Origin: Jimgerdemannia flammicorona
Lineage: Eukaryota
Assembly (NCBI GenBank): GCA_003990765.1
Contig: RBNJ01000255.1
Location: 1 to 35,276, forward strand
Reading direction: 5' to 3'
Length of the DNA: 35,276 nt
This document shows, piece by piece, positions 6,518 to 35,276 of the stretch. Both the position numbers and the translations under genes were made by a program. Under the pieces are notes generated by a model that worked only from the letters and a program-made list of their open reading frames with translations, was not told the DNA's origin and searched no databases. The first letter of the stretch is position 1. Each line of letters opens with the position of its first letter.

Positions 6518-7273
6518 TGTAATAACTCTCACTTCTACCCCTCTCTTATCCTTTAGATAATTAGGAAAGTGGACTATTACTTAGGGACTTAGTACACAAT
6601 GTGTACCAAGAAGCCTTCAGTTTGAGAAAGTGCTCACTTATAAGTAAGTGTAGCAGTAGTGCCTTCTGTTTCAAAGGTCTTTCTCTGGTACCCTATTTTG
6701 AGGGTCTTGTTCTTTGCTATACACAGACTGAATTTGCCTTGGAATTCAGATTCAATGAGTTTACTTAAGTCTTTGGAGATTTATATACTGGTCTCAGTTC
6801 TGATAGAAGTTAGCTAGGCTTCTAGAGTTTAGTCAGAAACACTAGAGTCACTTAGATGTCATTACTAAAACTCAGGGGAATGTGTATATATGGGGGGGAC
6901 TTGATTCTTATATCAAGGATTGAACTAAAACTGTTTTATTTTGGATGAAAAACTAGGGGGTATTTATACAAGTTGGTCTGCGATTTCTGACTAAGTATGA
7001 GTGACTAATTTGGTAACTATAATGAGGTTTGTGATCACAACCTTTGTCAGGTGGTTTTTGGTAAAGAATATCTTTGTAATCAGGACCTCAATTACTAGAC
7101 AATGATCAGCAGCTATGGCAACAGTTGCTGTGGCGCCGATTGTTGGGGATAAGCTAGATATTATTTTTCGCATCGTTTCACATCATTCATCATTTGTATG
7201 TCATGCTTTGTTTGTATGATGATGTCATCATCCTCAGGTCACATGATTGCTTGTTATGCCTCATTCTATTATA
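6518..7273 (-). repeat. E1 3' LTR (756 bp)
   Basis: Direct repeat of 16077-16832; plus-strand TGTAAT...ATTATA (terminal CA mutated to TA); PPT AAGGAGAGAAGGA adjacent at 7274-7286. Confidence 0.95.
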
Positions 7274-7436
7274 TCCTTCTCTCCTTAGAAATCAATGTCC
7301 TTATTGATTGAGAAATTGAAAACTAGAGGAGAGAAAGGTGGAGAATCCTGCTCGGGGTTATTGGCATCTTCTTCAGTAGCAGGGGGGGTGGTGGTTGCTG
7401 ATGGCTCACTGTCTAGGATGGAGAAGTCAATGAGGT

Positions 7437-8114
7437 CTACAAATGGTTCTTATATTGGGATAGGTGTTGATGTAGGAGTTCTCCATTTGATGCAGTTGGG
7501 GTCATCCAAGTAGGGTTCTTGGTCCTCATGCCTGGGAATATCCATTTGGATAGGCAGTCCTTCAAAGAGGTCAGAGAGGCCTTGAGCCATTGGTCAGGGT
7601 TGTCATTCAGAAGGGGGCTCCAGTAGGGTTCACAGTCAGTAGACTTGAGGGTGATCTAGGAGTTGGCTTCTTGAGCTACCTTGATCTTTAGTTTGTCAAC
7701 CTCAAAGAAGGAGAGGTTCTGGAAATCCTTCAGTTGGATATAGTTGAGGTTGGGGATTGCAAAGAGTACATGGCACATGATTCAATAGACCTTCTTGGCA
7801 AGTCTTTGCTCGCTCCTGTCTAGGTGGGTCCAATCAGTGACTTGGTCCATGGACAGGTTCTTTACCCATTGGAGGAGTTGATGACTAATCTCATATTTAT
7901 GCTAGATCTCTAGGTGGCTGGTGGCAAGGTAGGCTCTTTCGATGACTTCACAGCAGTTGAGGACATAGTGTCCTAAGTCCTGGCTGGAGAGGTTAAGGGC
8001 CTCTGAGCAGTAGTTCCTTTCTTGGATAGCAATCTGGATGTATCCAAAGAGGTGGTCAACCTGGCTTGGAAGGGGCTGGCTATGGTGGACAGTTTGGCAG
8101 TAGATAGTGGGCAT
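7437..8114 (-). pseudogene. E1 extra 3' ORF, 226 codons, unknown function
   Basis: ATG at 8114, one continuous frame with 3 internal stops (TAG, TGA, TAG); TATAAATA at 8179-8186 upstream. Confidence 0.7.
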
Positions 8115-8761
8115 TCTTATCTTGTCTTTTCTTTGTAAGGTGAGGGGGATGAGAGTTGCAGGGTATTCTTGCCTAGGGTATTTATACTTATTCACCCATC
8201 TGATGTGACCTTCCTTTGGTCATGCTTTCTGGTAAAATGCATAACCTGTTGCTGTAAGCAGAGCATGTGCTAGTCACATGAGAAGATCCTGATTTCAAAG
8301 ATATCATTACTTATAGTTGTGGTTACACAGAGTTAACAGGTCTTGATCCACTTTTTTTTTTGTCTAATTGGTGTAATTGTGAGGACTGGCCATCCTTGTC
8401 TAGGGTAAGGGCTCTCATTGTCATGGTTGGGGGTTTGAACCTCTCATAAATAGACTTTTCTTGTAATCTGAGGCAATTCCTAGTAACAATATCTGTCACA
8501 TAGATGGGCTTAGACTGGTTTTGACATTGTTAACTTTTCTAAGTTCCATATGAAGCCTCCATCATCATCCAGTAGAGATGACATAGATGGTGTGAAATAG
8601 AGTTATTCAAATATGTTTTGCTATACTATACTAGATTGTTCTTTTACTCAGGTATCTTCTTATTGGTTTATCCATAGTGTTCCTTTTTCTGCAATATTCG
8701 GTATTATATATTTCCAGATAAAATATGTAGTATCCTTCTGCTCACTTTGCACTCTAATACT

Positions 8762-10300
8762 TTAGAGCTGTAGTTCCTTTCTTTGCTGGGGGGTGAGTGT
8801 TTCCATGTAGTCCTGGAGGGCTTCACATGCATTCTTCAGAGCTTCTTCTTTTTCCCAGGTAGCATCATGGGTGGGGTAACCCTTCCACTTGATTAGGAAA
8901 AAGCACTTGACTGTTTTGGGATATTTGCAGACCTTGTGGTCAAGTACTTCCTCAATTTCGAATTCCTCATGATCATTGATCCTGATTGGGGGTGGTGGTG
9001 GAATTGTATGCTTGGGGAATAGATTCTCATGGTAGTCCACCAATTGGCTGATATGGAATACTGGGTGTACTCGGATATTGTGAGGAAGTTGCAACTTGTA
9101 GTTGACTTTGCTGATTTTTTCCATGATCTTGTATAGTCCAATTCTTCTAGCATAGAGTTTCTTGGCTGGTTGTTATGCCAGAGTGTCTGGGTGGAGGTGG
9201 TCTATTCTAAGCATGACCATGTCACCAATATTATAGAAGGCTTCTCTTTGCTTCAAGTTTGCATACTTGGTCTGATAGTCTTGTACTTCTATGAGAGTAT
9301 CTCTCATCATTTGTGTAAGGTCAGAAATGGTCTCAGCCAGATCTTGGGCTGCTGGAACTGCTGATTTTGCAGTAGTACTCGGGGTCCTTGGGTATTGACC
9401 ATGGTTCAGGAAAAATGGAGTCTTCTTTATAGAGGTTTGCTGACTGTTGTTATAGACAAACTCAGCATGGGCTAGGTACTTGTCCCAATAATTTTGCTTG
9501 TAACAGCAGAAGATGCTAAGCATCTGTTTGAGAGTCCTGTTGGTTCACTCAGTTTGACCATCAGTCTGAGGGTAGTAGGCAATAGAGAACTTCAGCTTGG
9601 TTCCATGGAGGGAGAAAAATGCCTTCCAGAAGTTGTTTGTGAACTTGGTGTCTCAGTCAGATACAATAGTGCTAGGCATGCCATGTAGCCTGAATACTTG
9701 ATTGAGGAAAATCTCAGCAATCTCTGGTGCTGTAGCAGTGGTCTTAGTGGGTGTAAAGTGGGCTTGTTTACTTAGGTGGCCCATGAATACCACAATGGCA
9801 TCCCATCCTACCTTGGTCTTGGGAAGTTGGACAATAAAGTCTATTGCAATCTGGTCCCAATTGTGACTCAGGATAGGTAAGGGTTGCAGGAGTCCTGCTG
9901 GTAGCTTGTTACCACTTTTAAACCTTTGGCACATCTCACATGAGACCACAAAGTCTTTGATGTCCTTGGTCATCTTTGGCCAATAGAACTCTCTTAAGAG
10001 AAGGTTGTAGGTCTTTTCGAAACCAAAGTATTCTGCTGTAGGAGTATTATAGAGTTCCTGTATGATCTTGAGTCGCAGAGTATCATTATTAGGTACAATC
10101 ACTCTGTCATGGTCTCTGTAGATAAGTCTATCATAGTAGGTGAATCTCTTGGCCATTTGCCCCATGGGTTCTGGAATCTTGACCTCTGGGTCTTGGCAGA
10201 ATTGAAGAAAATTCATCAGAGGGCTGTCTTGCTGGTAGCCATCCTTGATCATTTGGGTAAGGTCTCCAATCACTTTGACCATGAAGACAAGTTTATCTTC
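8762..10300 (-). pseudogene. pol: E1 integrase with C-terminal chromodomain
   Basis: FYWPKM..SCEMCQ, GLLQPLP, IAIDFI, IVSD, VHPVFHISQL; chromodomain EFEIEEVLDHK..FLIKWKGYPTHDATWE. Confidence 0.95.
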
Positions 10301-11602
10301 TATGTACCTGGAGAAACCATCAGCCACACAGTTGGTTTTGCCTGAGATATACTTGATTTCCATATCAAAGTTGGCAATGATTTCCATCTAGCAGGCTTGT
10401 CTGTAGGTTAGCATGGGCTGTATGTAAATACAGCTCCTTTCTCCACTACCTTACTGGTCACAAGGTTTGGTAGGTGACCTTCTGAGTCCCCTTTCCCCTA
10501 ATATTACCCCCTCTACCTTGGGTTGGTTTGCTGTACCTACAGGGGCATAGTGGGAGGAGGGCAATGGTGATGAGTTGCCCCTTTATTGGTGTCAGATCGG
10601 TGCTTCCTCCACTTTTTCTCGGATTCTGGTGCCTTTGGCTGTATCTGAGGTGTACCCATTTTGGTGTGGCACCTTCTTCCTTTTGCTGTTGCCAACAAGG
10701 AGTTGTCTCAGTGTATCTTGGGCTACATAGGGAGTCGGCCGACCTTGGGCATCAAGTGCTCAGTGTAGGTTACCTGCAGGTCCTCAGTGTCTGTGGTGGA
10801 GCCCTCTGGCTTTGGCGAGCTTCCCGGCGAGTGCAGTTCTAGTGTAGGTGACTGCTTTTCAGATGTTGTCAGAATGAGAGGGGAGATGGCCATCACAGAT
10901 AGGCGGAAGGGTGATTACAGTGAACCAGTAGGGTGCCAGGCTAGGGGCGGTCATTGGGGCTGGGGCAGGTACTGCTTTGGTGGGGCCTTTTGATTGATGC
11001 GGTGCAGTTAGGTGGTAGGTGTCACTATCGGCTTCTTTTGGCAGTCAGCAGGGTTGGGCCCCAGTTATCAGAGGGGGTCAGGAGGCCCGAGGCTACCCAT
11101 TTCAGGCGTCTTGGCTGCACTCAACTGGAACCGGGAGCTGACATGGCAATGTGATCGAGGCCTACAGACTTGAGTAGTGGGGTATTGGGGATTTCCTCCC
11201 ACCTCACGTATAAGTCCTTTACTCACCTCAACTGGGAGAACCAGGTCCTACCCACCATGTTGTACTTTGATGAGGGTTTTTTATTTGCCTGTCATTCTCT
11301 TTGAGGTGGCAGGGGCTATTCTATTCAACTTGGGTGTGGCCTTGTACATATGTTGAGTTCTCAGGCATGTGCTTTCGGTCGTTGGCATATGGTTGGGTTT
11401 CCCCTGGTGGTAGGGAGAGCATGGTGCACAGAATGAGGTGCGGGCTTATCAGCCCTGCTACGCCTGGCATAGTTGAGCTACTGGACAATAGCTAGCCTAG
11501 GTTAATGGGGTGGCAGTGCTTGGTGAGTGGTGGGGGAGAGTTTTGGCCTATATAGTCTAGGTTTCCTTCCAATAAAAATCTGCGGGACATGAGTCTGTTA
11601 AA

Positions 11603-11653
<51 letters not shown>

Positions 11654-12900
11654 TGTATGTAAATATACCACAATGCATAGTGATCAGTGTAGACCACAAA
11701 TGGCTATCCTAGGAGGAAATGACACCATTCCTGAAGTGCAGTGACAATAGCCAGGAGTTCCTTCTCATGGGTGGTATATCAGGTCTTGGCTGGCTTGAGC
11801 TTTTGGGAAAGGTAGGCCATAGAGCAGTCTTCTTGGCTGAGTACTGCTCCAATGGCAATGTCAGAGGTATCTGTGGTCAGGGTGAATGGTCTGGTAAGGT
11901 TAGGTGCAATTAGTACTGGGGCCTCAGTAAGGAGTCTCTTGAGATGGTCCATAGCCAGAGTGCATTTGGGGGTCCATTCAGCTTTGATATTCACTCCTTT
12001 GCAGGCCAGACTGGTCAATGGAGCTGCAATAGCAGAATATCTTTGGATAAATCTTCAGTAATAACCAGCAATACTCAGAAAGTGCTGGAGTAGCTTGAGA
12101 GTAGTAGGGATAGGGATATCCTTAAGGGCTGATACCTTTCGGGAGTCCATAATGATATCTTCAGCAGAGATGATGTATCCTAAGTACTCAATCTGGTCTT
12201 GATAGAACTTACATTTGCTCATCTTGACATAGAGCTGGTGTTCTCACAGGAGGGTCAGTACCTATCTGAGGTGGGTGTAGTGTAGTTCTACTGTCTCACT
12301 ATAGATTAGTATATCATCAATATATACAAGGACACAGATGTTGAGGAGTAGTCCAAAGATGTCATTCATAGATACCGAAATGTTGCTGGTGCATTGGTCA
12401 ATCCAAAAGGCATGACTCAGAACTAGTAGTATCCAAACCATGTTCGGAAAGCTGTCTTCTCAATGTCCTTCTCATCAATGAGAATCTGGTGGTAGCCATT
12501 TTGCAAATCCAGTAGAGAAAAGGTCTTGGCCTTGAAGATTTGGTGTAGCAACTCGTCAATCTTAGGTAAGGCATACCAGTTCTTGATGGTGATCTTGTTG
12601 AGGGCTCTGTAGTCAATACACATTCACAGAGAGCCATCCTTCTTCTTGATAAATAGAATGGGGGCTCTAAATAAAGAGCAGCTGAGTTCAATATATCCTT
12701 AGGCCAGTAGTTTGGTCAATTCATCCTTGAGGGTCTTGAGCTCAGATTGGGCCAGTTGGTAGATACTATTGTATGGGGGTTCAGATCCTGGAATGAGATT
12801 AATTCCATGTTGGATTTGGCACTTGAGTAGAAGTCCTTGGGGGTCTTGGAATATATCCTGGAATTCTTCGAACAGTTCTTGAGCTTCTGTTGGAATTGGG
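10301..12900 (-). pseudogene. pol: E1 reverse transcriptase and RNase H, interrupted by retroposon copy 3
   Basis: CIDYRALN, LPKIDELL, KTAFRT, YIDD (~12314-12325), TTDTSDIAIGAVL, NCVADGFSR; removing the insert restores TDHYALWYIYIQPMLTYRQA. Confidence 0.95.
10431..11649 (+). mobile_element. 1.2-kb non-autonomous non-LTR retroposon, copy 3
   Basis: 46-nt poly(A) at 11604-11649, AATAAA at 11571-11576, 16-bp TSD GGGCTGTATGTAAATA at 10415-10430 and 11650-11665. Confidence 0.95.
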
Positions 12901-13022
12901 TTACTTATAGCTTCAGTGACTTCCTGTACTGTACAGATAAAGTAGGTGTTTCCCTTTTTTTGAGAGAGTCTCTTCATTTGAATGGCAGAGATGATTTCGA
13001 TTCCTTGGTGGTTGGTATCTTC

Positions 13023-13400
13023 CTAGGGTGTCAGGGTGATCTTTCTGCCTTTGTGGGTCAGGTTAATCTCATTGGTTCTCCAGTTGATGTCTGGGTCGTA
13101 CTGGGTCAACCAGGCTTTTCCTAAGATAATATCTTGTCCTGGGAGGTCTATAATACTGAAGTCCAACTTCTCTTGATATTTGCCAATCTTGAGCAAAAGG
13201 TCTTTACAGATCTTGGTCAATGGTATAGTCTTTTCATCACCAAAGGTAACACTTCTTTTCTTGGTAGTTGGTCTGCTTTGGGCTTCAATTCTCTTGGCTG
13301 TCTTAGTACTGATGTAGTTTCCAGTAGCACTACTATTAAGCAAGACATTGATATTTTGTCTGTGGACTTGGCCTGTGAACTTGATGCAACTGTTCTCCTT
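13023..13400 (-). pseudogene. pol: E1 aspartic protease
   Basis: INVLLNSSATGNYI (decayed LDSGA), DIILGKAWL, PDINW. Confidence 0.9.
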
Positions 13401-13561
13401 CTTGATAGTATTGAGCTCTTCATCTTCATTGTTGACCCAATTGCTGTCAGTCTCCTCGAAGTCAGTTTCTCCCATCCTTCACAAGGAGGGTTGTCTTATT
13501 TGGGTTCCTCAGTCTGTTGGGCTTAGCATTTCTCAGATTGAATTTTGAAAACTTTGGAGAG

Positions 13562-13660
13562 GCATATATGACATTCACCAACATATTCCATACAGTACAT
13601 TCAAATAGAATGAGGGCATTGTCCTTATGGTGCATAACCATCTGCAATTCTCTTGTACCA
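13562..13660 (-). other. E1 Cys/His zinc-finger-like module (WYKRIADGYAP*GQCPHSI*MYCMEYVGECHIC)
   Basis: Manual translation, in frame with gag-dUTPase; closely matches the E2 motif at 24262-24360. Confidence 0.75.
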
Positions 13661-13709
13661 GTTTTCATTATCTTCCTTTATAGTAGTGACCTTTTGACTG
13701 AGAGGTTTG

Positions 13710-14125
13710 TTGGTAGATCCAAATCCTTTCTTGCTACAGTCTGTCTGAGAGAGTTCAGAGACTTCTTCAATAGTAAGATCTTGATAAATTTCTTCGATGA
13801 TTGCTTGGGCAATTCTTTGACCTGTTTTGACTTCAAATGATGTGTCTCCAAAATTTCACAAGATAACATGGATTTTACCAGTAAATACTTGGTCAACTAC
13901 TCCTCCTCCTAGTCCAATGTTGAACTCTTTAGCTAGGCTACTTCACTCAGCATAGCAGATGTATATTCCTTTGGGAGCTTGTATTGTAATTCCTGTTCAC
14001 ACTGTAGTATTGATACTTGGTGGAATAGTGAGATCTTGGCTGCTGTAGAGGTCATATCTAGCATTGGTTGGGTGAGCCTTAGTGAGGATGGTAGCCTTGT
14101 ACCATATCTTCTATACTTTAATAAT
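13710..14125 (-). pseudogene. dut: E1 trimeric dUTPase, in frame with Gag
   Basis: All five motifs visible through stops: ARYDL, *SSLA, GVVDQVFTGKI, GQRIAQ, CSKKGFGST. Missed by the ORF track. Confidence 0.92.
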
Positions 14126-15975
14126 ATTCTTGGGGTTTTTCTTTTCTGGATCTTCTCTAATAACAGTAATATTCTGGTTACTGGGTTTGCCTGTTCTGTT
14201 CTTCTTCTCAGGGCATCTGAATGAGATGTGTCCTACCTTCTTGCAGATGAAGTACAATCCCTTTTTATGGAGCTGCTTCTTCTCATCCTCAGTGGGAGGT
14301 TTGGGTCCTCTGGGATTTTGCTGGTTCCTTTGATCATTCCTTTGATCATATCTTTGATCATTCCTTTGATTATTTCTCCTGGTAGGATTCCTCCTATCTT
14401 GGTTATCCTTCTTGTGTTCTTGATTTCGTGGAGCTTGTGTTACAAGGATTTCGCAGGCTCTTCTTTGTACTTGGGCAAAGTACCATAAGTAGTGGGGGCA
14501 TCCTTGGGGAAGACCTTGTTCCTTGATCTTCTGGGAGAGCCAGTCTGGTAGGGCTGTAAAGAGATGGTTGGCTCTGGTACCATTGATGGCCAAATTGTTT
14601 TCCTGGTAGGTAAGTCCAACGGTTTTGAGGTAAGCATCCATTCTGGTGGCAAAGGTCTCTAGATTCTCTTTGCCATTCTTGTGGAACTTCATCTGGGACA
14701 GTTTGTTCCAAGTTTCTTGTATGTAGGCCGCATTTTGGAATTTAGTCAATAGTAAGGCCTTGAGTCTTGGGCCTGCTTCATAGTCATCCCAACCTGGTCT
14801 ATTGTTGCTAGGTACTTGTCCAATAACTTGGAGGCGGGCTTCCCAGGTTACTGGGTATTGTTCCAAGGTTCACCAGAATTTGGCTGCTGTTCTAGTGAAG
14901 AATGTAGCTACTGTTTCTACTTGTGCTGTTGATGTGGCAAACAGTTGTTAGAGGGTGCTGTTCTGATTGTTGGTGAGCATTCCTATAGGTACTCAGTTAT
15001 CATTCTATTGGTTTACTTGGTAGTCTATATTAACTGCATTGATGAAGTTTTCAATGTCACTGTTTTTTCACTGAATGTTAGAATTTGCAAGATCTTGGTT
15101 GGCTTGTTCTGTTCAGCAATCTGTCCTACTATCCCTGCTAGTGCTGCTAGCTGGGTAGTCAGTGCTGTAATATTGACATCTACTATTGTGTTAACTATTG
15201 GTGGTGGGCCTGTTGGGGTAGATTCTCCTAAAGATTGTTCTGCTTGGTGGGGTTGTGGGGCTATATGACTTGGGGTTACTTGGTTCCCAGATATCAAGTC
15301 AAAGAGTTCTGTGAGAGAGGGTAAACCAAACCTCTATATAGGTAGCTGAGTTGGTTCTGGGGTCTGATCTTCTTGATCTGTAGTTCCTTGGTAAATTTCT
15401 AGGCCTGCTGTTCCTCATTGGCTATCATCAGACTGGTAACCTGTAGAGTCTTCATCTGACTTCCTTTCCTGATGAGATAGTACATCCTTGTACTAACTAG
15501 GTCCTTTAAAGAGGATATTAGTCTCTGACTGGGTAAATGGGCCTACTCCTTGTTCAGCAGTAGGGGATGGTTGGCCTGCTTGCTCATTCTCATACCTAGT
15601 TATGGCAGAGGCATAGTATATAACTAGCCTGTAATAGAGGGAGGTCTTGGTTGGGGTATGATGATATCTATCAGAGACAATCTACTTGACAGCTGCTTCT
15701 CTTGCAGCAGAGGGTGTGATATAATCTAAAAAATCCTGGGTGACTGCAGCAGTAGATTCTGGGGTCCTAGTGGTTCCAATGTATCCTTGGAGGAGTTTGT
15801 AGAACCTATGGCAGCTGACAATATTCCTAAGTCCTGGGTAGTATGTCCTAAAGACCTGATATAAATCCTTATAAGCCTGGTCAATTACAAGTTGATGAGT
15901 CCTTGGGTCTGTGGTTTTCTGATACCACCTGATCCTAATGACAAGGACTTCTCTGGCTCTGGTTTGAGGATCCAC
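14126..15975 (-). pseudogene. gag: E1 gag with long N-terminal extension and zinc knuckle
   Basis: LTFSE..DIENFI motif near 15070 (frameshift in an A-run); zinc knuckle YFICKKVGHISFRC (CX2CX4HX4C with first C>Y). Confidence 0.8.
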
Positions 15976-16060
15976 AGTTAATTCTGGGGGTTACTCCTAT
16001 CTAAGGTTGGTCTTGTTCCAACTTCAGGAGTATGTTCTTTGGTGCCTTCTTGGCTGGTAA

Positions 16061-24799: not shown

Positions 24800-26179
24800 T
24801 GTGCATTGTTGGCTTCAACTATTCTCCAACCTTGGTCCTTACCGATGTCTGAGATTCCTGTTCTCATTTATTGTCTGAATGTGGGAATTTCTGCTAGTTG
24901 GCTGAAGGTTGCATTGACTTTTTGGTCCTTGAGGTCCTTGAAGATATCATACTTAAAGGTCTTGCTTTTGTGCAATTTCTGCTCCTTCTTTCCTTCACTT
25001 GATGGGGTAGTGTTTCGGATGATATCCTCCACTGCTCGATCAAGTTCGGCATCCTGTTCCAGCTCCATTTCTTGATCAGCTTTGCTCTGCTGGATCTCAT
25101 TTCCGATGTCGACTTCCAGTTGCTTTGTTTGTGTCTGGGTCTTCTTAGGAGGTCTGCCTGGAGGTCTTTTATAGGGGCTGGATTGGATATCCTTCTTGCT
25201 TGAGGTGGCAAGGTAAGCTTCCCATTCCTCCCTCTCTTCCTCAGATTCTCCAATCTCCTCAAAGGTGATAGTGTTTGCTTGTTCGCAGTTCCTGGTTGCA
25301 TTGCTTGGATTGGCCTTTCGCTTAGTTTCTATCATACATTTGGAGGCATAGTGGCCTTCTTCTCTACAATTATAGTATGTTATTGATTGTCTTGCATTTG
25401 TAGCAGCAAACTTCTGTACTAGCTTCTTCTTGAATTCCTTGACTATATCACTGAGGTGTGCTGTCATTTCTGCAAACTGCTTGGCCAGTTCCTCTATTGG
25501 GTTGACCCTTCTCTGATCTTGTGGTTGTTGTTATATATTTCGATTAACTATAGCAGCTGGAACTATATTGGTAATTCTTGGTGCTTGCTCAATTTTTACT
25601 CCAGTTATCCTTTTCATTATATGGCCTTGAGGGTGTCTGGCAGTCCAGTATCTTTGGGCATAGGTAACTTTCTGTCCCAGGTCCAGTGGTGTTGGGGTAG
25701 ATCAAATGGCTAAAGCGATTTCTTAGTGAATACCTTTCATGAAGGTATTCTTGGCCACTTGGTCTTGAACTGCATTGGGATAGTCAGTAAGGACTATTTG
25801 GTGTCGGATTCTTGTATAGAATGTGTTTGGGTCTTCTGACATTCCTTGGCAGATGGTATTCAGTTGATCTTTGAGTGCCTGTTTGATTTCATCTGTGTAG
25901 TAGGTTACCCAGAGCCAGGCCTTGAAGGCTAGGATTCTTGCTGGATCATTAGCTCCTTATATATTAGCTGTAGTAAACACAGTTCTTGCTGGGCCTCAGA
26001 GGCTCACAGGGAGTAGGGCTACTTGTTGTACTACTGATAAGGTTCTTACAGCAGCATACTGCTTGAAATCATCAATGAAGGTGATGATTGATTCATCAGA
26101 GATATATCCATAGAATATGGGTGGTCTCATATCTATTCTGTCTGATTGTGTTGTGTGGGTTCTGATTGCGGTTGTTCAT
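24800..26179 (-). pseudogene. gag: E2 gag
   Basis: PPIFYGY..ITFIDDF; zinc knuckle YYNCREEGHYASKC. Confidence 0.85.
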
Positions 26180-26217
26180 TGTTCAGCTTGAAAGTAAGGA
26201 ATTCATCTTGAATCATC

Positions 26218-26232
26218 AGCCAATGGGCACCA
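26218..26232 (-). promoter_or_regulatory. E2 primer binding site TGGTGCCCATTGGCT (tRNA not assigned)
   Basis: TGG 3 nt inside the 5' LTR. Confidence 0.7.
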
Positions 26233-26235
26233 AGT

Positions 26236-26693
26236 TGTAATGTAGTAGATGCTAAGATGGGCAAGTACGTCAGATTTCTTTATCTTGAATTCTTGTCTTC
26301 TTGACTTCCAGAGTCAGTAGTTCCTTGAGGTCAAATGTATTTTTAAAGAGGTAATCCCGAAGGTCCTTTTATTGGTATACTTGTTCTTTTTCTAACACTT
26401 TCGATCTGAGATTTATTCACTCAAAGATACTGGGTTATTTATATAAGTTTGCTAGCTATGAGATGGCTACTGAGTTATGCAGCTAAGTTATGAGTCATTT
26501 AGATAATGTCTAGAAATTTAGATAATGTCGAAATGCTATACTAAATCGGGGTGTTTGATTTGGACAATGTCTAGAAATTTAGACAATGTTGGAATCGGTG
26601 ACTGCTAACTATAAGGCTATACTACTTTGGGAATGGGTGTGATCAAGTGTCTATTCCCTATTTCCTTCTTCCTAATTTGGCTATACTGCCACA
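26236..26693 (-). repeat. E2 5' LTR (458 bp)
   Basis: TG...CA; direct repeat of 20653-21099; TATAAATAA on minus at ~26435-26443. Confidence 0.93.
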
Positions 26694-27017: not shown

Positions 27018-28447
27018 TGTAACAGACCAAAACATACCACCTGAATTATAACTTAGCCAGATGATGCGAACAATTAGCATACTTACTCAGCATGATGTAA
27101 CTTTCAGTATATCATAGTTACTCATGCCTGCCATACTTATAATTAGCCAAGACACCAGATCAGAATTATTTACCTATATCCTGCAGACACTCATATCCTG
27201 CGGACACACTCATGTCTTGCAGACACACTCATGTCCTATAGACATACCTGTACCCAGAGGATATACCCAAACATTACCAAAGATAGCAAATCTATAGTTA
27301 GCCACATAGTAACCAGATAGCAACCAACTTGTATAAATTACCCCAGAGGCGAGAGTGAATAAAACCTCAGTCCGAATTGAAGTGCAAACCAAAGAAGCCT
27401 CTAAAGATTGAGCAATTGGTCTCCTTATTCCCACTCCGGTCTACTTTCCAATACAAAGAAGAGTTTGTTATGTTTTTGGTTCGCTTGCCAGATAAGCCTG
27501 AAGACTTGCCGCCTAAGTTCAAGAAGAACTTCACTGCCTTTGGTTCGCTTGCCAGATAAGCCTGAAGATTTCTGCCTTTCTGCCACCTAAGAGAAAGCTG
27601 CCTTGCTCAAGCCAGTTTCTGATGCAACTTCGCAGTAGAGCCAGTCTACGACGTAACCCCGTGCAAATGAAGCCAGTCTTTGACGTAACTTTGCCAAGAG
27701 ACCCTTTCCCAAAGAATGCCACCAGTAGTTCATATTCTCAGTCGAAGCCGCCGATTTAGAAGAATCTGCACCACCTGAGTTATTTCCCAGAAGTCCGCGG
27801 ATTCAGGAAGAATCTGCGCCATCCCGTTTCCTAGTTAGAGCCTGCTGATTCAGGAAGAATCTGCACCATCTGAGTTAATTCCCAGTTAAGCCACCGTTTT
27901 CAAGAAGCCTGTCAAATCTGTGTCGTCTGCCACTTTCGAGTTATCTACATTTCCAGAAGAGCCATCCGAGTTCTTCATTATTCCCAGTAAGCCTATAGAA
28001 GAATCCATGCCATACAATTCCCAGAGAGCCAAATCGAGTCATCTGCCAGAAACCACATACTTTTGGAAACCCATTGCACTACACAGAGATTGCCGTGCTA
28101 CATGAAGATCACCCGCTACTCAAGAAGGAGAACCACTAAATTGCCAGACTGTTACACCTAGAAATTGCATACTTTTGGAGATTGTCATGCTATACAAATT
28201 ATTGTGGCATTCTCAGTTGACCCAAGAAGGAAACCCATTCATACACAAATCGCCGCTACACCCAGAGAACAGTCCTAATAAGGAAACCACTCGCAGATAT
28301 CCAGCTTTGACTATTATACTGCTAAACACCAAGGATCTCAGGAATCTTAGAACATTTTGTTGCTTTTGACAAAGTAACTGGGAGCTCAAGCCAAACTACA
28401 TCAACCCCCAACCTTGTAATTTGCCTCCATTGAGCTGGCATGTTACA
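27018..28447 (+). repeat. E3 5' LTR (~1430 bp) with several internal tandem repeats
   Basis: TGTAACA...TGTTACA terminal inverted repeat; starts where the copia frame breaks and ends 2 nt before the PBS; TATAAAT 27332-27338, AATAAA 27358-27363. Second LTR not in the window. Confidence 0.75.
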
Positions 28448-28449
28448 TT

Positions 28450-28466
28450 TGGGGGCTCAACTGGGA
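28450..28466 (+). promoter_or_regulatory. E3 primer binding site, tRNA-Pro type
   Basis: TGGGGGCTCAACTGGGA closely matches the canonical PBS-Pro TGGGGGCTCGTCCGGGA. Confidence 0.85.
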
Positions 28467-28482
28467 AGATTTTAAAATCGAT

Positions 28483-30480
28483 GTGACTTTTCAGCTCACA
28501 AGAACCCACAGTCAACTGGATACATTTGATACAACACCAATCTCTGCCACTACAGGAGAACCAGTCATCACTAGCATTTGGACAGGAAGAGAAGTAATCA
28601 CCTCAAGACTTGCCAACTACCCAGCATCAGAAGGATCTCAACCAGAAGCAGGAGGTAGTATAGCCCAAAATTCCCAATCAGATCAACCAGATCAACCAGA
28701 TCAACCAGACAATACAGGCAGCCCTGCTAGAGTCTTTGGAGAACTTGCACAAGAACTAGACGAACTTATTATCCAGACCCAACATCTTACAGCCAGACAG
28801 CATACACCAGTCCCACCAATCTCACCAATAGAACCCCTACCACAACCTCTTGCAGAACCAGAAGTAGCTCCTACAAGGATACCTAGGCCTACTCCATCTC
28901 ACCCAAGAACAAGAACACCATCTTCAAGATACCCAAGCACCCTGGTCTCTAGTGACAGTTCAGAAAGTGAATCAGAATCAGAATCCGAATTCGAACCAGA
29001 ATCAGAAGAAAGTGACGAAGAAATAGCCACCTCATTGCCAATCTTTGCAGGATACCTGGAGGAAAACCCCAGAGAATTCCTTGATGGAATCAAAGGAATT
29101 GCAGCCTTGAGGAATCTCTCAGATGAGAGGAAGATTGCGAGAACCAGCTAGAGGGATTTTCCATCGAACAGCAAACAACCCAGATTCAGAACTAGCAAGA
29201 CAGATATAAGCAGCAGTCTCCTATGAGCTAGAATATCAGGCCATGGTCTACTGGCTCATAGAAAAGTATGCAGGAAATGAAACCCACCACAAGGCTCAGG
29301 AATCCATCATGGGAATGAAGATGAATCTTGGAGAATCACCCAGAGCCTTCTTCACAAGAATCCAGAAGAGAATGCACTCTGCCGGGTTCAATGCCACCAA
29401 CCAAGACATCATAGGTCCAATGACCTTCATGAATGGGATTCCTCTGAATATTGCCCAGCATATCTGCACCCTAGGCATCAGGAGGTCTGAAGAGCAAGTA
29501 GATGCTGCCCAAGGATTCTTTGATATCAGGCAAGGAACTACCTGGAGTGACCATGACAAGAAGGAAGATAAAGAAGATATCCTGGTCAAAGCCCTACAAG
29601 GACTCCTTCAAGGACAAGAAAGGTCTGAAGAAAGAAGGCCAGCCAAGGAAGGAAAGAAGGACAGAAGTGAAATTCAAGACCTTAGCTCCAAGTTAGACCA
29701 ATTGGTTGGGCAGATTGAAAAACTCACCACATGCGAAAATCGGGACTACCAAAACAACAGAGGGTACCCACCACAGAGGAGCCAAGGTTATCCACCAAGA
29801 GATAACAGGAATTACCAGCAAGAAGAAAGAAGGTACCCTGCCTGAGACAGAGCCCAAGTCCAATGCTTCCACTGTGGACAATTCAGACACTATGCCACTG
29901 AATGTGACAACAAAAGAAGTGACCGAAGGGACTCAGAACCACCAAACCAAAGGAATGACACCCAGTACAAGAAGACTGAAGCCCATCCTATTGAAGATTT
30001 CGAGGAAGCAAGCAACAGTGAATACTACAGTGATCTAGACTTGTATCCTACCAAGGTTACTACCCAAAAAACAGTCTACCCAGCAGAAAAAAGAAAGAGA
30101 CCTGTGGGAAGACCATCCAGGAACATCAGCAGAAGAATCATTCAAGAAGAAGACGAGGAACATGAAGAGGAACAAGTTGAAACACCTCCCCAAACTCCCT
30201 CACCTTTTGTGCCTGAGACAAACGAGTTGCCACCAGAAGATGAAGAAATGGAACAAGAAGAATGAGAACCTGCTGCTCCAAAGTCTAAGAAGAAGTACAC
30301 CCCAAAGACCATGCCTAGGGATATTTACAATGAAGCCTGGCAGAAGATTCAAGAAGCCAAGATGGAAGTCCCTCTCCTGCAGTTCCTGCAACTGACATCA
30401 GCTGGAGTCCGAAACAAATTGCTGAGAACCACCAGGTCTAGCACTGGCCGAGTTCCAATCCCACAGCAAGAACCAGCCTC
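28483..30480 (+). pseudogene. gag: E3 gag
   Basis: LPIFAGYLEENPREFL; MKMNLGESPRAF; zinc knuckle CFHCGQFRHYATEC at ~29863-29904. Confidence 0.88.
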
Positions 30481-30499
30481 CATCCCTATCCAAGCAGCC

Positions 30500-30880
30500 G
30501 AAAGACATGTCAGCACCTACTTACATGGAGACATTGGAGGACAAAAAGCAAAAATCCTCATAGATACAGGAGCAGCTGTCTGTGTTATTGCCAAACGATT
30601 CTTGGACACCCTCCAATGGCCCATTGACGGACCATCCAACCTCAGCATCATAGTAGCAGATGGAGCCCGAACTCAACCCCTTGGAGAAGTATGAAATATC
30701 ACCATCTCCCTTGGACACATTCAGTTCTCTATCCCCAAAGCTGTTGTCACCGAAGCTGTCACCTATGATATGATTCTTGGCACCAACTGGATGAAGGAAA
30801 TGAATGCAGTTGTTGATATTGGCCAACAAGTACTCAAGTTCGACTACCGAGGCAAGAAGTATAGAGTTAAAGTGACCAGC
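30500..30880 (+). pseudogene. pol: E3 aspartic protease
   Basis: ILIDTGAAVCVI, VADG, YDMILGTNWM. Confidence 0.93.
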
Positions 30881-32188
30881 TATGAGCAATCAAAGAAGAA
30901 GAAGAAGGTCACTATTCAAGAAGAATATGCCAGCAGTGAGGAGTCTACTACAGAAGAAGAAGAAGAATCCAAAGATGGAAATGATCCCAGACTCAATCCA
31001 CGAATTAACCTGGTGGATGACAGACTAGAAGACAATATGTGGACCAAGAATACTATCCCTATCACCATTGGAGCCATTGCAGGAGAAGCCAAAGGATGCC
31101 CTACATGCCTCAAGAGACACAAGTATCCTGAGCACTCCTCCAAGATCATGGGAAAAAGGAAATTGCCTGGTGCAGCCTGCCCAGAATGCAGAAGAAAGAA
31201 GAAGAAATGCAGACATGTTCCAGAAACACCTGTGACCAAAGCTGCAGGAGTACAAGCAATTTGGGGTCAAGAATCATCTGAGGAAGAAGAAACTTCTGAT
31301 CAAGAAGTTCCTGAACAAGAAGCACCTGATGAAGAAGAAGTCTCCAAACTCATTCCCTGGGATGACCCTCGCTGGACACCACCTGAAGACAATGACCCCT
31401 GAAATACAGAGAAAGGACCCAGCACCATCACCATTATCCCTAAGAAAGAAACCCACCAAGAGAAAGCTTTTCAGCTAGGAAGATGTCCACATCAAATGGT
31501 CTTCCACTCTCTCTGAGACTACTGCTATCAGTGTCATCTGTTGGATCAATAAGAAAGACAGAGACCTCAGAGACCAGAACCCCCAACTACTCTTGCACAG
31601 TCCACCACCTTTCAAGAGGTCACCACATGGTTACAAAGTCAATTTAGGGGACAAGGCTTCTTCACCCAAACAGAAATATACCCCTTATCTACCCTTCCCC
31701 CAACCTATGATCAAGATGGGTACCAATTCCCAAGACAACAAGAGATAAATAGCTGGGAACATCATTTCCAAGCAATGGAATATTGTAACCATAGGAGACA
31801 CCCTGATTGCCGAGACTGCAGACATCAGAAGATTCACCTCAGTCATAATATTGCAGTGCACACCTTGAAGAAAGGAGATAACCGAAGCCAGATCTGAAAA
31901 AGTCAGATTCGAAAAAGCCAGACCAAGAAGCCCGGAAAAAGAATCCTCAAGATCTACGATTTGGGAGAAGACATCCTAGCTCTCGTCAGACATGTAACCC
32001 ACTAAGGATGGGCAGAAGATGCCACCAACTTCATGGAAGCCCTTGACCCTACAGGAAGGAGGGGAATCAATTACCTCCGAGACCCCTCTACTGGAGCCAG
32101 ATGGCCACACCTCAACCTTAGAGCTTGGAGGCTTTCTGCTAGTAGAGCTTCAGCTCTAGGAAAGCCTGAACTCAGCAAGGACATTGCC

Positions 32189-32593
32189 CAGTATGCCCTG
32201 CTGCACTCCAAGGCCAAACCCCCAGCCAAAGCCCACCCAGAGGATGTAGGATATGATCTTCACAGCCTGGAGAATGAATCTATCAAGTCTGGAAAAACCT
32301 TCATGGTCAGAATGGGATTAGCCATGCAACCACCTCAAGGAGCTTATATTCAACTGACCTCAAGGTCTGGACTTGCCAGACAAGGGATAACTGTAGAAGG
32401 AGGAACCATTGACCCTGAATATACAGGTGAAATCAAGGTTATCCTACACAACAGCAGTGCAGAATGGCACCGAATCATTAGAGGACAGAAGATTGCCCAA
32501 GCAGTCTTCATGAAGGTTAAGACCCCACAGTTACAGGAAGTCTCGGAACTAACTAAAGGAACAAGACAAGCCAAGGGATTTGGAAGTTCAGAC
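32189..32593 (+). CDS. dut: E3 dUTPase domain (stop-free) within pol
   Basis: VGYDL, SRSGLA, GGTIDPEYTGEI, GQKIAQ, RQAKGFGSS. Confidence 0.95.
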
Positions 32594-32999
32594 AGGAAAG
32601 AGGTACATCTCCTTCAAGTCAACCACCTCAAGAGAAATGTCCCCCAGCAAGTATACCGGCAACCAGTCAGACTGCACAAGAACCTCATCCTGGAGCCTGG
32701 AGAACAAACTACTTTCGAAATCTTTGCACCACCCGACCCCAGAAACCTTTTCTTTGAACCTAAGGAAGATATCCCACACCTGGACATAGAGGGACACACA
32801 TTCCCTGAAAAGATGAACCCAGTATACTCCTGAGCAATCAACCAAAGTTGGGAGACCATCATCCTGCTGAAAGGAACCATCATAGGACATCTGGTGCCTT
32901 TTCTCAACCGAACTCATAGGGAAGTTTATGAACTAAACCTATCGGAAATGGCAAAAGGTCTCAGAAGAAAGGAAAGGCCCCTCTGCGACCCAGGAGACA

Positions 33000-34412
33000 G
33001 TGAAGCCTTCCACCAATATTGGAGAAGAATTGACACCTCAACAACAGCAACAACTAGTAGAACTTCTCAACAAATATCAAGATATCTTCACCACTGATTA
33101 TGGTAACCTGCCATACAATCCATCATATCACCATAGCATAAATACAGGAAGTGCAACACCCATCTGGCAGAAACCCTATAGAATACCCCATCATTTGAAA
33201 ACATTCAAAAAAGAGCACATCCAAGAACTCTTAGACAATAGAGTCATCCGACCCTCTACTAGCCCCTGGGCCAGCCCTATACTTATTGTACCAAAGAAAG
33301 GAGGATGGAGACTCTGCATGGATTACAGAAAACTCAACTCAGTTACTGAAAAGGATGCTTATCCTTTGCCCAGAATCGATGATCTTTTGGACCAGTTACA
33401 AGATGCCAGATACTTCAGCAGTATGGATCTCTTCGCAGGATTCCATGAGATCCCCATGGACCCCAAGGACATTCAAAAGACAGCTTTTCTTGCTCTAGGA
33501 AAACTGTTTGAATACCTCCGGATGCCCTTTGGACTTTGCAATGCACCCCCCACCTTCCAGAGGATGATGAATTCAGTCTATGCCCCCTTGATCCACCACT
33601 GTCTGATTGTATATATGGATGATTCCAACATCTATTCAGCAAATTTCGAAGAACACCTGCACCACCTAGAGGAATTCTTCAAGCTCACCCGCAAGAATCA
33701 CTTGTGACTAAATGCAAAGAAATGCTACTTTGGAAAACAGAAACTCGAATTCCTGGGATTTGTGGTCTCAAAAGAAGGAACCCATGCAGACCCAAAGAAA
33801 ACTGGGAAGATCAACAATTGGCCAGTACCCAAGACTCCAAAAGAAACACTATTATTCCTGATGCTAGTATCCTACTACAGAAGGTTCATCAAGGATTTTG
33901 CCCAAATCACTGCCCCAATCCGAATCCTTCTCAAGAAAGGAATGACATTCAAATGGACAGAATCACAGGAAAAAGCCTTCAGAGAACTCAAGAACCGCAT
34001 GACTACAGCACCAATCCTTATGTGCCCCAATCTACAGAAGCCATTCATCTTGTATACAGATGCTTCCAAAGATGGCCTAGGAGCAGTTCTAGCCCAAGAA
34101 GGACCTGACCAACAGCACCATGTGATAGCTTATACAAGCAGAGCTACCAATCAGCAGCAGACAAACTATGGTAGCACCAAACTGAAGTGCCTTGCAGTCA
34201 TATGGGCAGTCACTCTGTTCAAGCATTACCTCATCGGAAAAAGGTTCACCCTGATCACAGACCATGCAGCCCTCAAATGGCTATTCAACTGTAAGGAACC
34301 TGCCAGAATTCTAGCCTGCTGGATCCTTATCCTTCAGGATTACAAAATCACCATCATTCATAAAGCAGAGAAAGCCCACAACAATATTGATGTACTTTTC
34401 CACCAGCCCTAA
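33000..34412 (+). pseudogene. pol: E3 reverse transcriptase and RNase H
   Basis: SPWASP, CMDYRKLN, YPLPRIDD, MPFGLCNAP, YMDD, TDASKDGLGAVL, TDHAAL; one internal TGA at 33705. Confidence 0.96.
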
Positions 34413-35276
34413 TGAATCAGAGGAAGGGTGTCCCAAGGAACCACACCCTAAAGAAAGCTCCTCAGACTATCAAAGCACAAGAAAATCTTATCCAAAAAGA
34501 ACATCAGAAAGTCCACCAAGGACAGACAAGCATAGAAGACAGGATTTGAAAACAATATCAACATTGGCCCCACCTCAGAACTCAAGTTCGGGATATTATC
34601 CAGAGATGTGACATCTGCCAGAAGTACTAAGGAAAGAAGAACTACCAAGCCCCTCTGCAACCAATTCCCCCACCCACTCACATCTTTCAAAGATGGGAAG
34701 TAGATGTAATCAGACCTCTACTAGTTACACTAAGAAGAAACAAATACATCCTTGTATTTGTAGAACATCTGACCAAGTGGCCCGAGGCTTTCCCAATGGA
34801 AATCGCAGATGCCTTAACCATTGTAGGCCTCCTCCATGGACTCATATGTACTCAGATATGGACCTCCAGAAGAACTCATCTCTGACTGAGGCATAGAATT
34901 CATCAACAACATAATCACAAGTTATGCCCAAATTCACAAGATCCACCTCAAAAAAACCACATCATACCACCTCCAGACCAATGGCATGACAGAAAGAATG
35001 AACCAGACCATCAAGAAAGGACTTACCTGAGTCAACCCTATTAATTGGGACCTCTGCTTACCTGAGATCCTATGGGAAATTCGGAACACCCCTGCCACAT
35101 CCACTAAACAAAAGCCATTCGAAATGATGTTTGCCAAGAAAACCAGAACTGCTGACCATGAGAATCTTGGAGACCTCCTCAAGAAGGCAGAACAGTTATG
35201 AAATCAAGCCCAAGGACAGATTATCAAAGCCCAGGAAAGACAAAAGAAGTACTATAACCAAAAACAGAAGGATCAG
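34412..35276 (+). pseudogene. pol: E3 integrase (partial), different frame from RT-RH
   Basis: H..HQG..WP..CDICQ, WEVDVIRPL, EHLTKWPEA, LISD*G, YHLQTNGMTERMNQTI. Confidence 0.93.

Follow-up and report, generated by a model that had tools for sequence, protein, structure and literature searches.

Among the accessory functions known from fungal gypsy elements and some retroviruses is a retroelement-borne dUTPase, and the dUTPases of retroviruses and retrotransposons are a textbook example of host functions that were captured. Novikova and Blinov (2008) reportedly described dUTPase-containing fungal Ty3/gypsy elements. Fungal Ty3/gypsy elements with a dUTPase include PosPlaTy3-3, -4, and -5 of Postia placenta, elements of Phanerochaete chrysosporium, and Tmt1 of Tuber (PMC2864245). 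According to the sections of that study drawn on here, the dUTPase occupies different places in gypsy families of one fungal genome, namely the Pol N-terminus, the interval between the protease (PR) and reverse transcriptase (RT), or the Pol C-terminus, and independent acquisition of the dUTPase was already proposed for those families (PMC2864245). As far as these sources extend, variable placement of the dUTPase in fungal gypsy families was already published in 2008-2010. In the passages on the bdelloid rotifer elements Juno, Vesta, and TelKA, the dUTPase is placed between PR and RT (PMC5408684).

Here we analyzed a 35,276-bp stretch of Jimgerdemannia flammicorona DNA (contig RBNJ01000255.1; "the window"). 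The window, from a CpG-depleted genome, is itself strongly CpG-depleted and is a pile-up of dead transposable elements, namely LTR retrotransposons. We recognized three decayed Ty3/gypsy elements, E1, E2, and E3 (Table 1), and the nearest named RT relatives of the window elements are fungal.

Table 1. Features of the three elements in the window
Feature	Position	Strand	Description
E1	6518..16832	-	Decayed Ty3/gypsy element with chromodomain
E1 3' LTR	6518..7273	-	756 bp; termini TGTAATA...TATTACA
E1 integrase (H2C2, core, SH3-like) and chromodomain	8801..10087	-	Pfam
Nested E0-family fragment	10427..11629	.	1.2 kb: LTR and ~170 bp of adjoining sequence, 86-90% identity
E1 RT and RNase H	11659..12650	-	One frameshift within RT
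E1 aspartic protease	13050..13412	-	Pfam RVP_2, E 2.8e-7
E1 zinc-finger-like module	13529..13672	-	C-P-H-x12-C-x2-C, between dUTPase and PR; 74 bits with the profile of database relatives
E1 dUTPase	13712..14098	-	Decayed: transitions at motif residues, stop in motif II
E1 5' LTR	16077..16832	-	756 bp
E2	20653..26693	-	Decayed Ty3/gypsy element without chromodomain
E2 LTRs	20653..21099 and 26236..26693	-	4-bp TSD ATAT/ATAT
E2-family 3' ORF (Pol C-terminal extension)	21140..21529	-	62% identity to L001
E2 dUTPase	23740..24123	-	Motifs III-V decayed
E2 zinc-finger-like module	24226..24372	-	87 bits with the same profile; last Cys replaced by Tyr, intact in L001
E3	~27018..35276	+	Decayed Ty3/gypsy element, ends inside integrase at window edge
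E3 candidate 5' LTR	27018..28447	+	Second LTR outside window
E3 GRCPH...CYQC motif	31454..31537	+	Weak, variant relative of the zinc-finger-like module
E3 dUTPase	32213..32590	+	Within an open 275-aa frame; all five motifs recognizable

The domain order of E1 is gag(CCHC)-DUT-ZnF-PR-RT-RH-(nested fragment)-IN-chromo (DUT, dUTPase; ZnF, zinc-finger-like module; RH, RNase H; IN, integrase), followed by ~1.5 kb of 3' sequence; the nested fragment, of the E0 family, interrupts the element between RNase H and integrase. E2 has the order gag(CCHC)-PR-ZnF-DUT-RT-RH, then a conserved C-terminal extension of Pol; its integrase core is deleted and is present in its relative L001. In E3 the order is gag-PR-(~200 aa)-weak Zn motif-(~240 aa)-DUT-RT-RH-IN(zf). 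An earlier note on this DNA had given the orders as gag-DUT-ZnF-PR in E1 and PR-ZnF-DUT-RT in E2 and E3, in agreement with our annotation, with the weak motif alone in the ZnF place of E3.

The Pol order PR-RT-RNase H-IN of Ty3/gypsy elements is complete in E1. E1 and E2 have paired LTRs with TG...CA ends, a target site duplication (TSD), a primer binding site (PBS), and a polypurine tract (PPT), and E3 has a candidate 5' LTR and a candidate PBS only, with its 3' end beyond the window. In element sense, the PPT of E1 (AAGGAGAGAAGGA) precedes the 3' LTR and its PBS candidate (TGGTAGCAGTAG) is located 2 nt downstream of the 5' LTR. As the earlier note had stated, the TSD is 5 bp in E1 (TCTAA/TCCAA, the copies differing by one transition) and 4 bp in E2, and the LTRs are dissimilar: no nucleotide similarity was detected when those of E1, E2, and E3 were compared with each other. 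The PBS candidates also differ, beginning with TGGTAGCAG in E1, TGGTGCCCATTGG in E2, and TGGGGGCTCAAC (from position 28450) in E3, where the candidate was judged from the single visible LTR. A homologous ORF before the 3' LTR of E1 and E2, also claimed, could not be recovered: the best six-frame BLASTP and tblastn matches between the two had E values of 0.016 and 0.02, and hhalign of the E2-family 3' ORF profile against E1 gave a probability of 0.14% (E 0.4). The E2-family ORF matched no Pfam family.

The chromodomain reported for E1 was confirmed (Pfam Chromo, E=1.5e-10; score 41 bits, cut-off 25), and the Pfam search gave no Chromo match in E2 or in L001, a near full-length relative of the E2 family. 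In the RT tree, E1 was placed in a clade (100/99) with chromodomain elements and dUTPase-less gypsies, and the RT of E2 and L001 fell outside the chromodomain clade. A single RT clade of E1, E2, and E3 with their relatives was rejected by the AU test (p=5.1e-6). E1 is thus assigned to a chromodomain (chromovirus-like) Ty3/gypsy lineage, and a non-chromodomain lineage includes E2 and E3.

All three elements have a dUTPase, as the note had said (Pfam PF00692; E=4.2e-26 in E1, 3.6e-19 in E2, and 2e-25 in E3). By their sequences, these are dUTPases of the trimeric type inside a Gag-Pol polyprotein. They resemble that family in their Pfam matches (E 1e-19 to 1e-26), in matches to solved cellular and viral enzymes (up to 115 bits), and in motifs I-V (AGxDL, RSS, GxIDxxYxGE, RxAQ, and GFGS), which are intact in P0006 (E1 family), L001 (E2 family), and P0001. 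They differ from it in being embedded in a polyprotein, and the window copies have inactivating transitions and stops.

In E1 and E2, the CPH...CxxC sequence marks a genuine, conserved domain that spans ~45 residues and has the pattern C-H-C-C. The profile scores of both (Table 1) are far above chance, and no other site scored near them in a six-frame translation of the window. The earlier note placed this module near the dUTPase in all three elements. The statement holds for E1 and E2; the E3 motif is weakly related, with 5-7 bits (E 0.03-0.12) using the strict profile; a profile that took in variant motifs as well was needed for 11 bits (window-wide E 8e-5). The E3 motif matches P0068 (44% over 27 aa, E 0.004), and its spacing is off by two residues from that of the E1/E2 module. 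A variant Zn motif with a ~170-aa linker is common to P0001 (PR-Zn-X-DUT-RT) and P0067 (Zn-X-DUT-PR; E 7e-12).

A search of 1.84e9 proteins with the module profile gave 13 matches at E<=1e-3, nine true and four false positives in HYR repeats, and a metagenome scan contributed the carriers L001-L003. Among 14 sequences, the putative ligands Cys, His, Cys, and Cys are present in 14, 13, 13, and 12, respectively, and Tyr occupies the position in all four exceptions. A dUTPase is adjacent in nine of the 12 carriers outside the window (upstream in seven and downstream in two), and the E1/E2-type module is always at the dUTPase-protease junction, in either order. The linkage is not absolute: P0010, P0013, and L002 have the ZnF without a dUTPase in the available 82-373 aa. 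Conversely, the elements P0066 and P0069 manage without a ZnF, although the dUTPase of P0066 is sister to that of the ZnF-bearing P0014 (98/91). Between E2 and L001, Ka/Ks was 0.12 for the ZnF, 0.10 for the dUTPase, 0.11 for PR, and 0.07 for RT-RH. The ZnF and dUTPase of the E2 family are under purifying selection, as the note's claim that selection kept these modules requires.

The AlphaFold2 model of the ZnF (mean pLDDT 91) consists of a helix, a beta-hairpin, and two helices. Foldseek and VIA-align searches with this model gave a best E of 5.9 and a best Z of 3.4, respectively, for a small domain that such searches easily miss, and the ESM Atlas gave no usable match. No Pfam family matched the module at E<=0.01, and a sub-threshold match to zf_RING_Vps8 was seen in P0013 only. 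We considered whether the module is a retroviral CCHC knuckle (PF00098), but its spacing is C-x-H-x12-C-x2-C rather than C-x2-C-x4-H-x4-C, and it has no zf-CCHC overlap, while the separate gag knuckles match that family. Since the ZnF is not basic and has a Glu-rich N-terminus, nucleocapsid-like binding of nucleic acid is disfavored.

Among described systems, PosPlaTy3-type elements are like E1 where the dUTPase precedes PR at the N-terminus of Pol, and like E2 and E3 where it lies between PR and RT, a comparison of architecture alone (PMC2864245, the sections used here). In those sections, the zinc fingers named are CCHC and HHCC, with no Cys-His module beside the dUTPase (PMC2864245). The order nucleocapsid zinc knuckle, dUTPase, protease of E1 is shared with Mason-Pfizer monkey virus, as described in the part of the source cited (PMC1802613); E1-E3 are LTR retrotransposons, not retroviruses. 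Betaretroviral NC-dUTPase, in the same part, physically joins a zinc-binding domain to a trimeric dUTPase (PMC1802613), an arrangement like that of the putative zinc-binding domains here. The extra finger of E1 and E2, however, is a separate C-H-C-C domain of ~45 residues and not a CCHC knuckle; it flanks the dUTPase on the side facing PR and is not basic. The rotifer elements share the place of the dUTPase between PR and RT, and Juno, by its published description, has an extra zinc knuckle after the dUTPase, a further instance of a zinc motif that accompanies the dUTPase of a retroelement; however, the finger of E2 precedes the dUTPase, the host group and lineage are others, and the likeness is one of description only (PMC5408684).

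The distribution of the two domains could be explained by vertical descent, in which an ancestor of both gypsy lineages had dUTPase and ZnF, and internal rearrangements in the vicinity of PR and many independent losses followed with no exchange. The uniform ZnF identities among carriers are consistent with this, as is a tree in which the gypsy and copia dUTPases all lie to one side of the cellular-like sequences sampled (SH-aLRT 89). However, dUTPase-less elements interleave between the E1 and E2/E3 lineages in the RT tree, where monophyly of the three was rejected, and the best PDB match is not the same for the three dUTPases. Very many losses would also be required. The dUTPase tree, which has weak deep nodes and a sample without named eukaryotic cellular dUTPases, also groups the elements in a manner opposite to the RT tree: E3 with E1 (98/93), and the E2 clade with the chromodomain elements P0069 and P0091 (89/79). 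A constraint uniting the E3 dUTPase with the E2 clade was nevertheless not rejected (AU p=0.217), and thus the incongruence between dUTPase and RT is statistically insecure. On balance, we regard descent without exchange as conceivable but rather unlikely. Because dUTPase and ZnF are scattered over two RT lineages in four arrangements, with close relatives that have no ZnF, we prefer modular recombination among retroelements, by which both would have spread over a long time with additional gains and losses. In gypsy and copia polyproteins, dUTPase is found at many positions.

The earlier note supposed more specifically that co-resident lineages exchanged these modules. In a recent form of such exchange, the E1, E2, and E3 families of this genome would have swapped the dUTPase, the ZnF, or both via co-packaged RNAs. 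The ZnF core is in fact the sole nucleotide-level similarity between E1 and E2 (73% over 75 nt), the ZnF of the two families is 58% identical, compared with 36% for the dUTPase and ~35% for RT, and the E3 dUTPase is nearest to that of E1. However, 58% is no outlier among carriers (26-74%; for example, L001-L002 60% and L001-P0009 58%), and 73% nucleotide identity is as predicted from ~58% amino-acid identity. The dUTPases of E3 and E1 are ~35% identical, and thus any transfer between them would be ancient, and the constraint test above also tells against a swap. Recent exchange here is therefore quite improbable and is not needed for the distribution of the two domains. The distinct RT lineages of the original claim stand and module shuffling among lineages is plausible, but the co-resident exchange does not follow.

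As for function, by analogy with established retroviral dUTPases, the enzyme would hydrolyze dUTP near the reverse transcription complex; uracil would thereby be excluded from the cDNA, which would escape degradation or mutation. The ZnF may be an adaptor or spacer stabilized by zinc that would keep the dUTPase trimer in position, or tethered, within the polyprotein or particle, loosely like the zinc-knuckle nucleocapsid in betaretroviral NC-dUTPase. Overall, we regard a ZnF of this proposed kind beside the dUTPase, spread by modular recombination, as the more probable reading. In a bolder version, which we consider unlikely, the fold of the ZnF would be a new one that binds zinc, and ZnF and dUTPase would make up a mobile cassette of two parts. 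This cassette would have moved between unrelated LTR-retrotransposon lineages (chromodomain and non-chromodomain gypsy), with the ZnF also found apart from a dUTPase, and the ZnF would dock the trimer onto the protease/reverse-transcription machinery of the particle. If true, retrotransposons would have in the cassette a counterpart to the NC-dUTPase fusion of betaretroviruses.

The earlier note further suggested counter-defence, that is, that the module shields the elements from a host process driving C>T change in repeats. Decay is indeed dominated by transitions (66 of the 72 differences between the E1 LTRs and 475 of the 605 between E2 and L001), and CpG o/e is 0.16-0.23. However, transitions focused on CpG would be the expected trace of methylcytosine deamination in the chromosome, which gives T and not dUTP-derived U, and the site of dUTPase action is the nucleotide pool during cDNA synthesis; from established enzymology, dUTPase would thus be unable to act on such decay of resident DNA. 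Moreover, all three elements are heavily mutated, and decay has gone as far in the dUTPase-bearing copies as in the E0 element, which has no dUTPase (CpG o/e 0.17). We consider this role very improbable.

Thus, E1-E3 are an ordinary known kind of element plus one modestly new accessory domain. The proposal of an undescribed system survives in part: dUTPase at variable positions was already in print in the portion of the literature cited (PMC2864245), and the ZnF, which had no Pfam or PDB match in the searches above, is a zinc-finger-like domain of ~45 residues that is apparently undescribed. The copies in the window are dead, and no long-standing question is opened. What is added is a small, selectively maintained Cys/His domain, usually with a dUTPase, between dUTPase and protease. 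If zinc binding and a requirement in dUTPase function or in processing of the polyprotein were demonstrated, the domain would count as a new accessory of LTR retroelements and serve as a handy marker for module shuffling among them.

Three gypsy elements of two lineages in the window each carry a dUTPase (DUT), and two of them have a genuine Cys/His domain in common. The window is composed almost wholly of transposable elements, the positions of which are listed in the table. In E1, which has a chromodomain, the LTRs are 756 bp long with the termini TGTAATA...TATTACA, and a 5-bp flanking duplication (TCTAA/TCCAA) has copies differing by one transition; the candidate primer-binding site (PBS), 2 nt inside the 5' LTR, is TGGTAGCAGTAG and the polypurine tract is AAGGAGAGAAGGA. 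E2 is flanked by a 4-bp duplication (ATAT) and has the candidate PBS TGGTGCCCATTGG. The LTR bounds of E3 are candidate only, the second LTR being missing from the window, and its candidate PBS is TGGGGGCTCAAC. The two LTRs of E0 (about 1.05 kb each) are 85% identical, and in its interior no pol was recognised and tandem repeats of 88-126 bp were observed. A 1.2-kb fragment of the E0 family (86-90% identity) is nested at the RNase H/integrase junction of E1, and this insertion accounts for the length of E1. The AT-rich stretch between E1 and E2, where GC is 27.7% and CpG is nearly absent (observed/expected 0.03), contains an older E0-family copy (72%); this stretch is probably repeat DNA, much older and more fully mutated. 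The LTRs of E1 and E2 are unrelated, yet both end in ATTACA in the element sense, and the seven bases ACTTGGT follow both of them before the candidate PBSs diverge.

Positions of the elements and associated features in the window, with domain orders
Feature	Position	Strand	Description
E1	6518-16832	minus	LTRs defined by direct repeats and pairwise alignments; gag with CCHC knuckle, dUTPase, Cys/His motif, PR, RT, RNase H, integrase, chromodomain
E2	20653-26693	minus	LTRs of 447 and 458 bp; gag with CCHC, PR, Cys/His motif, dUTPase, RT, RNase H
E2-family 3' stretch	21140-21529 (5864-6253 in L001)	minus	stops about 40 nt short of the 3' LTR
E3	candidate LTR 27018-28447, to window end	plus	gag, PR, long spacer, dUTPase, RT, RNase H, integrase zinc finger; ends inside integrase at window end
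E0	213-5617		fourth element; non-autonomous LTR element
E0 LTRs	213-1269 and 4573-5617		
E0 tandem repeats	2805-3426		
E0-family fragment in E1	10427-11629		
Older E0-family copy	18114-18781		
AT-rich stretch	16833-20652		
ACTTGGT after E1 and E2 LTRs	16070-16076 and 26229-26235		plus-strand positions

Each element was scanned with Pfam in three sense frames, with stops read as X. A dUTPase was recovered in E1 (E 4.2e-26), E2 (E 3.6e-19) and E3 (E 2e-25), and the domain orders stated in the earlier note proved to be correct. The RT of E1 carries one frameshift, its integrase comprises H2C2, core and SH3-like parts, and its chromodomain was detected with E 1.5e-10. In E2, the integrase is reduced to a C-terminal piece, and Pfam found no chromodomain. 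The window copies of all three elements are dead, and several dUTPase motifs of E1 and E2 are damaged by transitions or a stop. The proteins are members of the dUTPase family, and all five motifs are kept in intact relatives, namely P0006 (a database protein of the E1 family) and L001 (a metagenome contig of the E2 family); the E3 dUTPase is contained in an open 275-aa frame. The closest solved structures are not the same for the three dUTPases. The structure 2d4l (molecule name 'DU'), which we take to be the Mason-Pfizer monkey virus enzyme, ranked fourth among solved structures for the E2 dUTPase and was absent from the best 60 structures listed for that of E1 or E3.

The Cys/His modules (ZnF) of E1 and E2 are 42% identical over 62 residues, with the near-identical core WYxRIADGYAPxGxCPHxxxMYC, and are the only match between these elements at the nucleotide level (73% over 75 nt). 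When 1.84 billion representative proteins were searched with a three-sequence profile of the module, 13 matched at E<=1e-3, nine of them true; the remaining four, which are HYR-repeat proteins by Pfam, were rejected as false. A pattern scan of metagenome contigs gave the further carriers L001 (an almost full-length element), L002 and L003, and a fourth contig (L004), which matched over 13 residues, was set aside as spurious. The alignment of ten sequences is essentially without gaps across a core of about 45 residues. The four putative ligand positions are intact in 14, 13, 13 and 12 of 14 sequences, and all exceptions are Tyr, which is one transition from Cys or His in the genetic code; thus, the exceptions fit decayed copies. 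Among the 12 carriers outside the window, the dUTPase lies just upstream of the module in seven (P0006, P0008, P0009, P0011, P0014, P0016 and L003), with PR downstream where the sequence extends far enough, and just downstream in two (P0012 and L001), and it is absent from the available sequence of three, all of them short (P0010, P0013 and L002). The position of the ZnF is constant, between dUTPase and PR. In these last three (the L002 region is 332-481), the module is followed about 45 residues downstream by a second small Cys cluster (WCxCxEC), and the protein around it may be gag-like or the product of a host gene.

The earlier note attributed the module to all three elements. A ten-sequence profile run over six frames of the window had just two matches, E1 at 74 bits and E2 at 87 bits, and the E3 motif (GRCPH...CYQC) has a spacing unlike that of the module and scored only 5-7 bits with this strict profile. 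Thus, the shared module stands as a genuine domain in E1 and E2, but the E3 motif is a weak match. A variant motif, CPxC..Y....C..C, in the database proteins P0001, P0067 and P0068 resembles that of E3, which is 44% identical to P0068 over 27 residues (E 0.004); with strict and variant sequences combined in one profile, E3 was the third and last match in the window after E1 and E2 (11 bits, E 8e-5 within the window). Judged from these comparisons, the E3 motif is probably a relative of the module, but a weak one. The variant motif, together with a linker of about 170 residues, is common to P0001 (PR-Zn-X-DUT-RT) and P0067 (Zn-X-DUT-PR), with E 7e-12; thus, an oriented Zn-X-DUT unit occurs on either side of PR, depending on the element.

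Between E2 and L001, at Ks of 0.6-0.9, Ka/Ks was 0.12 for both the module and gag, 0.11 for PR, 0.10 for dUTPase and 0.07 for RT-RNase H. Purifying selection thus acted on the module as it did on the other parts of the polyprotein, which bears out the proposal that it and the dUTPase were kept by selection. An AlphaFold2 model from the ten-row alignment was confident (mean pLDDT 91) and predicts a helix, a beta-hairpin bearing the Cys-Pro-His, and two helices, the last of which is opened by the CxxC. Pfam has no family over the module, a fold search with the model gave nothing above noise (best Foldseek E 5.9, best VIA-align Z 3.4), and the ESM Atlas, queried with the E2 ZnF segment, returned no usable match. 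The model of the start of P0014 (CCHC-DUT-ZnF-PR, seven-row alignment) had a mean pLDDT of only 55 and is too poor to judge the packing of the ZnF on the dUTPase.

An RT-RNase H tree was built from 19 rows of gypsy polyproteins found in the searches, both with and without dUTPase. E1 falls in a clade (100/99) with the chromodomain proteins P0091 and P0101, dUTPase-less Aureobasidium elements, and P0066, P0069 and P0074; outside it lie the E2 family with P0001 (87/92), and E3. Constraining E1, E2, L001, E3 and P0001 to one clade cost 67.8 log-likelihood units (AU p=5.1e-6), so that the single RT clade named in the earlier note as the outcome contrary to its claim of distinct lineages does not occur on this sample. 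In a dUTPase tree of 50 rows from a careful tree search, in which the cellular-like rows are unnamed sequences chosen by similarity to E3, the grouping is the opposite: E3 joins the E1 family (98/93), whereas the E2 family groups with P0012 and P0001 (100/93) as sister to the dUTPases of the chromodomain proteins P0069 and P0091 (89/79). A group of E3, E1, P0014 and P0016 in a first small tree (99/93) was not retained, as more taxa left support for E3 and E1 only. ZnF identities are uniform (58% between the E1 and E2 families, 26 to 74% in other pairs), and thus so short a module cannot date any transfer. P0066 has no ZnF, though its dUTPase is sister (98/91) to that of the ZnF-bearing P0014, which indicates that the module was gained or lost between close relatives. 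The distribution of the module can be explained only by recombination or by recurrent gain and loss across lineages. However, the more specific proposal of exchange between co-resident families is not demonstrated, since a grouping of the E3 dUTPase with the E2 clade is not rejected (AU p=0.217) and the deep nodes of the dUTPase tree are weak.

Two further proposals are not supported. A homologous ORF before the 3' LTR had been claimed for E1 and E2. In the E2 family, the place of a chromodomain after the integrase is taken by a conserved coding stretch some 130 residues long (62% identity between E2 and L001), and in E1 the chromodomain is followed by about 1.5 kb in which a frame of about 200 residues is broken. 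No homology was detected between them (best E 0.016 by six-frame BLASTP and 0.02 by tblastn; hhalign probability 0.14%), and Pfam had no match in the 3' region of either element. The second was counter-defence against C>T change. The E1 LTRs show 72 differences, 66 of which are transitions, and of the 605 substitutions that separate E2 from L001, 475 are transitions. CpG observed/expected is 0.16-0.23 across the elements (0.17 in the dUTPase-less E0); such a pattern is what deamination of methylated CpG would be expected to leave in resident DNA. Counter-defence is unsupported, because such CpG-centred, chromosomal decay is chemically beyond the reach of a dUTPase, and it strikes elements with and without the enzyme alike.

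The presence of dUTPase in gypsy elements is already known. According to the sections available of Novikova et al. 2010 (PMC2864245), gypsy families of Postia placenta have a dUTPase at the Pol N-terminus, at the C-terminus or between PR and RT; the same sections refer to previous reports from Phanerochaete and Tuber, propose independent acquisition from different sources, and mention extra ORFs of unknown function. The available text of Llorens et al. 2009 (PMC2774666) describes betaretroviral and fungal chromoviral dUTPases as alike, and that of Rodriguez et al. 2017 (PMC5408684) places the dUTPase of rotifer elements between PR and RT, followed in Juno by an extra Zn knuckle. The accessible part of an Entomophthora genome preprint lists dUTPase among enriched TE-related Pfam domains. 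A profile search for long proteins gave 36 polyproteins, none with the strict ZnF. Pfam was run on 25 of them, including the ginger (Zingiber) protein P0075; the other 11 are five more ginger proteins with dUTPase and six dUTPase-less gypsies. Among those scanned, three dUTPase positions occur in gypsy proteins (ahead of PR, in the PR-RT interval, or in the interval from RNase H to integrase) and two in copia proteins (past a PR-associated beta-barrel domain, or between integrase and RT), and the dUTPase of a frog retrovirus-like protein follows the integrase. The Ty1/copia-type polyproteins and several gypsy-like proteins of Zingiber officinale with dUTPase belong to the series P0070-P0095. 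The copia and ginger cases show that dUTPases occur in retroelements far beyond the fungal gypsy examples that the sections available cite. In those parts of the literature that the searches covered, we found no description of a C-H-C-C finger beside a dUTPase, and the small dUTPase-associated zinc-finger-like domain is apparently the one new item.

Retroviral dUTPases have an established role in lowering dUTP. Because of this function, we infer that the element dUTPase may, by analogy, lower dUTP where reverse transcription occurs. The nearest functional analogy is, from the available text, the fusion of nucleocapsid and dUTPase in Mason-Pfizer monkey virus (PMC1802613). The acidic, non-basic composition of the ZnF argues against nucleocapsid-like binding of nucleic acid. 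The module would bind zinc via its putative Cys, His, Cys and Cys ligands, and it may serve these elements as a structural adaptor that links the dUTPase trimer to the PR dimer, or else provide a docking domain in the particle.
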